Positions 17,147 through 18,213 of a stretch of 64,000 nucleotides of DNA are shown here, piece after piece. A model generated the notes under the pieces. That model did not search any database and was not told the origin of the DNA. It saw nothing but the letters and a program-made list of their open reading frames with translations. The DNA is from a phage. The first letter of the stretch is position 1. The number at the start of each line of letters is the position of its first letter. Made by a program: the position numbers and the translations under genes. The stretch lies in the sequence record OZ335963.1; one strand, given 5' to 3'.

Positions 17147-18007
17147 TTACACCGCCATCTTTCCTTTAATTGGCGGGTGAGATACATAGTTGTTAAGAAC
17201 AAAATTATGCGGCTTTGCGAATTGACTCAACCAAAATACCTGCGATTCTGTGTCCCATTCATCAAATTCATCTGGAAATTTTAATTGTAATTCGCATAAA
17301 TCCATAGGTTCACGACGCAAAATTTCTTTACATTGTTCTACGTGATTCATATAGATATGAGTATTACCACCAGAAAATATCAAATCTCCTGGAATAAGAT
17401 TACACATCTTAGCTACAATATGAACTAACGTAGCATATGATGCAATATTAAATGGAAGACCGAGGAAAACATCTACCGAACGTTGATACCACTGCAGATC
17501 CAAATAGCCATTACGCACATTAAACTGATAGAACATATGACAAGGTGGTAATGCCATTTGCTTAAGTTCTGCCGGATTCCATGCTGAAACAATTTGACGT
17601 CTATCATTTGGCAGTTTTTTAATACGTTCAACAACTTCTATAATTTGGTCTACGCCACCAAAATCGCGCCACTGTTTTCCATAAATTGGACCAAGTTCAC
17701 CGCTATGGTATCCTAAATCTTTTGCTTGTTTTTCGTAATTTTCATCCCAGACTGTTTTGCCTTGAATTAATGAATCATGTTGAATTAATCGCAAATCATT
17801 GACATTTGTGCTTCCCGATAAAAACCATATTAGCTCAGCAATGCAAGCTTTCCAGGCAAGCTTCTTAGTCGTTACTGCAGGAAAACCTTTAGTTAAATCC
17901 CAGCGTAATTTAGTACCGAACAAAGCAATTGTTCCTGTGCCTGTTCGGTCATCGGTTTCATAACCATTTTCAAAAATGTCTTTAATTAAATCCTGGTATT
18001 GTTTCAT
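17147..18007 (-). CDS. td: thymidylate synthase, 286 aa, uninterrupted (no intron)
   Basis: [26 protein letters not shown]...PPCHMFYQF...: one continuous ORF covering the whole enzyme including the active-site region. Confidence 0.95.
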   Translation of the reverse strand: MKQYQDLIKDIFENGYETDDRTGTGTIALFGTKLRWDLTKGFPAVTTKKLAWKACIAELIWFLSGSTNVNDLRLIQHDSLIQGKTVWDENYEKQAKDLGYHSGELGPIYGKQWRDFGGVDQIIEVVERIKKLPNDRRQIVSAWNPAELKQMALPPCHMFYQFNVRNGYLDLQWYQRSVDVFLGLPFNIASYATLVHIVAKMCNLIPGDLIFSGGNTHIYMNHVEQCKEILRREPMDLCELQLKFPDEFDEWDTESQVFWLSQFAKPHNFVLNNYVSHPPIKGKMAV

Positions 18008-18213
18008 TAGTTCATCCAAGAATATGTAGAAGGATATTTGGCAAAGTTAGGCTTATATCCTAATTTAACCATTTGTTTTGCTTTGCGAGTAAATCCTAAA
18101 GAACGCTCACCTTTAAGATATTGTTTTGGTGTCATAGGCCCTTGATGCATCTGCCGACAAATAAAAAGGGCCATAGCATTAGGAACATCCTTAACTTTTA
18201 ATTTATTGCTCAT
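18007..18213 (-). CDS. small basic hypothetical protein, 68 aa, between frd and td
   Basis: ATG overlaps the frd stop (ATGA) and its TAA overlaps the td ATG (TAATG), indicating translational coupling. Confidence 0.45.

Follow-up and report, generated by a model that had tools for sequence, protein, structure and literature searches.

The extra reading frame between frd and td of a T4-like phage is a member of a known, uncharacterised phage gene family

Is the third cistron that lies between the genes for dihydrofolate reductase (frd) and thymidylate synthase (td) in one T4-like phage an addition peculiar to that genome, and what might it do there? The reading frame in question, here called ORF68, was found in a stretch of 64,000 nucleotides of phage DNA (sequence record OZ335963.1; the window), which is a segment of a T4-like (Tequatrovirus) genome with the frd-td block on the minus strand. 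The ORF listing gives ORF68 68 codons and an ATG start and places it at 18007-18213 on the minus strand, exactly as in the preliminary description. It occupies the entire gap between frd on its 5' side (18210-18794, minus strand; 194 amino acids, PF00186 DHFR_1, E value 1.6e-18) and td on its 3' side (17147-18007, minus strand; 286 amino acids, PF00303 Thymidylat_synt, E value 9.7e-95). Both of the stop/start overlaps described earlier were also exact: the frd stop TGA (18212-18210) and the ORF68 ATG (18213-18211) overlap as ATGA (18210-18213, minus strand), and the ORF68 TAA (18009-18007) and the td ATG (18007-18005) have base 18007 in common, as TAATG (18005-18009, minus strand).

The same kind of junction recurs upstream, where an 81 amino acid ORF (18794-19039, minus strand; RB32ORF231c is its T2 counterpart) ends in a TAA that overlaps the frd ATG as TAATG, a one-base overlap like that of ORF68 and td. 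The 81 amino acid ORF, frd, ORF68 and td are therefore four cistrons chained by stop/start overlaps. Gene 32 (21400-20492, minus strand) lies further upstream and is followed by several small frd.x-type ORFs before the 81 amino acid ORF is reached. The window Frd is 87% identical to that of T2. On the other side of the block, two ORFs are found between td and nrdA on the minus strand, one of 91 amino acids with a DUF5496 domain (16860-17135) and one of 108 amino acids with a DUF4326 domain (16580-16906). These two overlap by 47 nt, the DUF4326 ORF also overlaps the start of nrdA, and their T2 counterparts, which differ in length, are named nrdA.2 and nrdA.1.

No promoter- or terminator-like site was detected inside 18007-18213 on the minus strand. 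The RNA at the two ORF68 junctions showed no unusual structure (z -0.4 and +0.5) and no sequestering hairpin, and no Rfam family was matched anywhere in the 64-kb window. ORF68 thus has the overlapping start and stop codons, with no promoter or terminator within it, that characterize coupled cistrons, in agreement with its earlier assignment to the frd-td transcription and translation unit. It is expected to share a transcript with frd and td, and to judge from the arrangement of its codons it is probably translationally coupled within the frd-td message. The ORF68 ATG has only a distant GGA at -15 to -13, as does the td gene of T4, which would fit re-initiation after frd termination. The td ATG of the window, read directly from the sequence, has a Shine-Dalgarno-like GGATGA 5-10 nt upstream (18012-18017, minus strand), and this motif arises from Trp-Met codons close to the 3' end of ORF68.

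The preliminary description had presented ORF68 as an unrecognised extra insertion, and this framing does not hold, since the gene is already known as a member of an uncharacterised phage gene family. Its product matches PHROG 9550 with an E value of 1.3e-45, residues 1-68 aligning with positions 1-68 of the 68-position profile, and 28 of 28 aligned relatives match the same family. The identical protein is present on 332 public contigs, where NCBI and UniRef label it hypothetical or uncharacterized, and in the annotation of over 100 GenBank genomes it appears as a hypothetical protein at this place, between frd and td. The observation named beforehand as weighing against novelty was an established, conserved gene in relatives, and ORF68 is indeed conserved across genera. 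No Pfam, NCBIfam or PHROGs family other than PHROG 9550 was matched by ORF68 or the 28 members, no paralogue was found elsewhere in the 64-kb window, and literature searches found no paper on the ORF68 peptide, on PHROG 9550 or on RB32ORF229c, an ORF that takes its place in T2. A few automated GenBank records carry the names "DUF4858" or "flagellar biosynthesis protein"; we rejected both, as no Pfam model corresponding to these names was matched at E values up to 10.

We surveyed the spread of the family at several depths. A tblastn search returned 238 phage records with an ORF68 homologue, including approximately 135 from Tequatrovirus and Dhakavirus along with Marfavirus, Kanagawavirus, Serratia phage 4S and the phAPEC8-like phages, the last being unrelated myoviruses (Stephanstirmvirinae) whose homologues are about 43% identical. 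Searched with a profile, 5.8 billion proteins gave 41 clusters, and 1.84 billion representatives, searched exhaustively with an HMM, gave only 15 matches, of which 14 were short family members or fragments and one was a low-complexity (repetitive) false positive. The homologue lies directly 5' of td in Tequatrovirus (ECp13), Dhakavirus (JS98), Marfa, CIP9 and Serratia phage 4S, with a stop/start overlap in each of the five, TAATG in JS98, Marfa and 4S and GTGA in CIP9, and GGATGA or GGATGG is found in all T4-like copies. The C-terminal residues are W-M-D in ORF68 and W-F-D in the phAPEC8-type homologues.

Outside this setting the gene keeps different company. The phAPEC8 homologue, gp235, sits among small hypothetical ORFs that form a long block running rightward, some of them preceded by annotated host-type promoters, and the thymidylate synthase of that phage, encoded on the opposite strand at 45.7 kb, is about 35 kb away. 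P0036, another homologue, has unrelated genes around it, and the homologue on L021 is unlinked to td. On the metagenomic T4-like contig L023 (Erwinia-phage-related; 1065-1852) a 74 amino acid homologue lies directly 5' of the DHFR gene with a 4-nt overlap, on the opposite side of frd compared to the window arrangement. Annotation of the locus is uneven: the JS98 (L002, 3001-3207), JS10 and Paracelsus records leave unannotated a 204-bp gap between frd and td, which encodes a copy of ORF68 with 98.5% identity. On one short IMG/VR contig (L017, 892-994) an A-run, AAAAAAAA, is frameshifted and leaves a copy of 33 amino acids, either a pseudogene or the product of an assembly or sequencing error.

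In order to compare the junction across T-even genomes, a 451-bp query spanning it was searched, and 546 records matched. The statement that frd directly overlaps td in T4 was correct: the T4 GT7 junction reads GTATATAAATGAAACAATACC / ACGGAATCAGTATATAAATGAAACAATACC, with the frd stop overlapping the td start as ATGA and ORF68 absent. The implication that ORF68 is unusual was not borne out. The T4 state is the rare one, seen in only 32 of the approximately 546 records, roughly half of them T4 itself, whereas 136 of 546 have ORF68 and about 360 Tequatrovirus-like records have, as in T2, the unrelated 115 amino acid RB32ORF229c. That the ORF looks "extra" is therefore an artefact of taking T4, a minority allele, as the reference. 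Compared with T4, the window has 206 additional bases, and AATGA flanks them as a direct repeat; the ORF68 ATG uses the upstream initiation region that serves td in T4, and the window td gains a new one made of the last codons of ORF68, with GGATGA at -10 to -5.

In T2 and RB51, RB32ORF229c lies on an insert of 417 bp that occupies precisely the ORF68 position, with a 9-bp repeat, TAAATGAAA, on either side. The cassette was located at 1654-2001 in T2 (L007), at 1654-2001 in RB51 (L009) and at 2326-3004 in CIP9 (L005). At 90% identity or more it occurs in about 363 records and distant relatives occur in 218, giving 581 phage records overall; CIP9 gp061 and gp060, Marfa gp176 and 4S_121 are distant paralogues. 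The gene order in CIP9 is frd, gp061 (the RB32ORF229c homologue, 44% identity), gp060 (a paralogue), gp059 (the ORF68 homologue) and td, and Marfa and Serratia phage 4S have a gp060-type ORF plus the ORF68 homologue. The gene abutting td in CIP9, Marfa and 4S is the ORF68 homologue; its position against td across genera points to an old association and favours secondary loss in T4 and T2, insertion elsewhere being the less likely alternative.

Local comparison with Dhakavirus JS98 revealed that the gene has moved more recently as well. Between the window and JS98, ORF68 has a synonymous divergence (pS) of 0.05, against 0.34 in frd and 0.75 in td, and a sliding-window comparison gave a 96-99% identity peak confined to ORF68, with approximately 80% at the adjoining 3' end of frd and 83% at the 5' end of td. 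The low pS and the confined peak indicate recent intergenus movement by recombination, and on these alignments the ORF68 cassette, or a short tract with it, is shown to have been exchanged recently between Tequatrovirus and Dhakavirus. The frd gene is itself a mosaic relative to JS98, at 90-96% identity centrally (approximately 18424-18723), about 57% at its 5' end and about 80% at its 3' end, a pattern which indicates several short recombination tracts at the locus.

The substitution pattern across genera is that of a functional protein. Against Marfa, CIP9 and related contigs, pN was 0.13-0.25 while pS was 0.5-0.75, and Nei-Gojobori dN/dS was 0.04-0.28 where dS could be estimated; synonymous sites are near saturation between genera. 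The reading frame is open across 4-5 genera, its length being 68-70 codons among the T4-like copies and 75-77 among distant homologues, and the alignment has 16-19 invariant or near-invariant residues. Since ORF68 fills the gap, stays open in 4-5 genera at near-saturated pS and matches a pre-existing PHROG profile, its presence goes beyond chance. These comparisons of aligned copies show that it codes for a protein and that purifying selection acts over its full length, and it is very probably a real, expressed gene.

The product was described as basic, and rightly so: it has a mass of 7.9 kDa, a pI of 10.26 and 13 lysine and arginine residues against two aspartate and glutamate, for a net charge of approximately +10.6 (about +11), and its homologues range from +8 to +16. 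AlphaFold2, run on the family alignment, predicted helices at residues 13-24, 29-38 and 43-50 (pLDDT 79) and an aromatic C-terminal tail joined to the N-terminal segment by a beta-bridge; the same three-helix topology was obtained for a phAPEC8-type homologue of 49% identity (pLDDT 77). The prediction is thus of a bundle of three helices with an aromatic tail. Searched with an ORF68 profile, PDB sequences gave nothing at E values up to 10, Foldseek of the model against the PDB found nothing, and a structure search of BFVD returned only ORF68's own family. The profile search and structure prediction proposed earlier thus yielded a family, PHROG 9550, and a predicted fold, but no relatives outside the family itself. 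In its three short helices, its strongly basic charge and the invariant glycine of its turn from helix 2 to helix 3, the protein resembles small tri-helical helix-turn-helix (HTH) proteins. Membership of the HTH DNA-binding class was nevertheless not supported, as there was no recognisable HTH profile and no significant structural match.

The downstream gene has a polymorphism of its own. The window td matches the Pfam profile end to end in one piece and so has no intron, whereas the td of T4 (T4 GT7 locus) contains a group I intron with I-TevI. Its last 65 codons (17150-17344, minus strand) are polymorphic in Tequatrovirus; the window version of this segment is shared by 157 records at an identity of at least 95%, has only about 61% identity to those of T2 and T4, and has 51-56% identity to those of the ORF68 carriers fPS-90, PD112 and PM136, and at least three C-terminal alleles exist. 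Among the phages with ORF68 there are at least two td alleles, and the window allele also occurs in phages outside the listed ORF68 carriers. Linkage of ORF68 to the polymorphic Td segment was considered and rejected, since the alleles do not co-vary.

What ORF68 does can be approached through where it is found. Our preferred reading, which we hold to be reasonably likely, is that ORF68 is an accessory gene, dispensable and exchanged between phages by recombination, which is translated by coupling and encodes a probable binder of nucleic acid or of an acidic partner. Ribosomes ending frd would re-initiate at the ORF68 ATG and those ending ORF68 at the td ATG, so that the protein would be made before replication and roughly in proportion to Frd and Td. 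By binding one or other of these early in infection, it may then modulate host takeover or counter-defence in a non-essential way. It probably acts independently of td, since the phAPEC8-like homologues lie in an early block of small ORFs about 35 kb from thymidylate synthase. Nucleic-acid binding taken by itself is putative, and we propose it only tentatively. Close to this preferred reading, and overlapping it, is that of a counter-defence or host-takeover effector inhibiting a specific host immunity or housekeeping factor, with the patchy distribution as the trace of an arms race; here the weight is on a protein target, not on nucleic acid. Such an effector could well be polymorphic for presence within one genus, be transferred recently between genera, have homologues in the early small-ORF region of unrelated myoviruses of the same hosts, and be small and without housekeeping homology, all of which apply to ORF68. 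However, the protein resembles no described one, and we consider this specific role somewhat unlikely. A broader combination, in which the junction is a cassette-exchange hotspot where T4-like genera trade alternative small genes by recombination at microhomologies in the stop/start overlaps and ORF68, common to these and the unrelated phAPEC8-like myoviruses, is a nucleic-acid-binding counter-defence or host-takeover factor with an unsolved fold, seems to us less likely again.

The persistence of the gene in the frd/td module, including the metagenomic copy adjacent to DHFR, could instead reflect a role in thymidylate metabolism. ORF68 would then be an accessory factor of thymidylate/folate metabolism whose target, bound or regulated, is Td, Frd, the dNTP-synthesising complex of the phage or their mRNA, as might be suggested by its place in the module, overlapping td, in all T4-like genomes examined, and by the L023 rearrangement, which still keeps the homologue in the module, overlapping DHFR. 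Such a factor is difficult to reconcile with phAPEC8-type homologues about 35 kb from thymidylate synthase, with P0036 among unrelated genes, with T4 and T2, which do without ORF68, and with a Td C-terminal polymorphism that does not track its presence, and we regard it as unlikely on the whole. If, on the other hand, the peptide were unimportant and ORF68 worked mainly in cis, as an upstream ORF or translational coupler setting the level of Td, the conservation of the td stop/start overlap in all T4-like copies and the position of the td GGATGA motif within the last ORF68 codons would be readily explained. Purifying selection over the full length, with its 16-19 invariant or near-invariant residues, argues against this, as do homologues away from td and the expression of td without ORF68 in T4 and T2, leaving it improbable; the class of regulatory upstream ORFs and leader peptides was rejected on the whole-length selection and on the td-unlinked homologues of the phAPEC8-like phages and L021. 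Least credible of all, and very improbable, is that the ORF is spurious or is what remains of a decayed mobile element, for example a free-standing homing endonuclease, even though the junction is a hotspot with alternative inserts and short direct repeats (AATGA here, the 9-bp repeat in T2 and RB51) and one metagenomic copy (L017) is frameshifted in an A-run. It is effectively refuted by the selection analysis, with dN/dS well below 1 across genera, and the consistent predicted fold of distant members also speaks against it. A search for the free-standing homing endonuclease class itself (seg/mob; GIY-YIG or HNH) found no nuclease or NUMOD domain in Pfam or NCBIfam; a remnant was rejected as well, hhalign against I-TevI giving a probability of 0.3% and 68 amino acids being too small.

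As a discovery, little rides on a gene already catalogued as a hypothetical protein. What its presence in the window does show is that T4 is an atypical reference at the frd-td junction, and the locus provides a clean three-allele case in which T-even phages swap small accessory genes between two essential genes of nucleotide metabolism. This swapping appears to leave the translational coupling of frd and td intact, while the td initiation region differs with each junction allele. The ORF68 family is a tractable one, strongly basic, 68 residues long in the window and common to two unrelated groups of coliphages, and accessory-gene or anti-defence screens could reasonably include ORF68.

Besides the HTH proteins, three known systems bear comparison with the locus. 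The other members of PHROG 9550 (UniRef A0A449C5N9, Marfa gp177 YP_009850431, CIP9 gp059 and phAPEC8 gp235) are full-length kin, sharing with ORF68 a length of 68-77 amino acids, an N-terminus of M-S/K-x-N-K-x-K-V, a G-F/LGY-x-P core and the predicted fold; the window protein, identical to database entries, differs from the family in no material respect. The RB32ORF229c cassette of T2, RB14 and RB51 resembles ORF68 in its frd-td insertion point and its short flanking junction repeat, and CIP9 has both cassette types in series. It differs in that its protein is unrelated and it is the commoner of the two; unlike ORF68, the insert of T2 (and RB51) has an AT-rich spacer before td and no td overlap, and that of T2 has non-coding spacers on both sides. 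A review of T4 mobile DNA describes gene 44/62 and nrdA/mobE (UAAUGA) as coupled cistrons, and the present locus is absent from it (PMC2988022). These pairs, and the T4 frd-td junction with its ATGA, are like the window in having overlapping stop and start codons on one message. In T4, however, td is coupled to frd, whereas in the window a cistron is interposed and it is ORF68 that overlaps td and to which td is predicted to be coupled.
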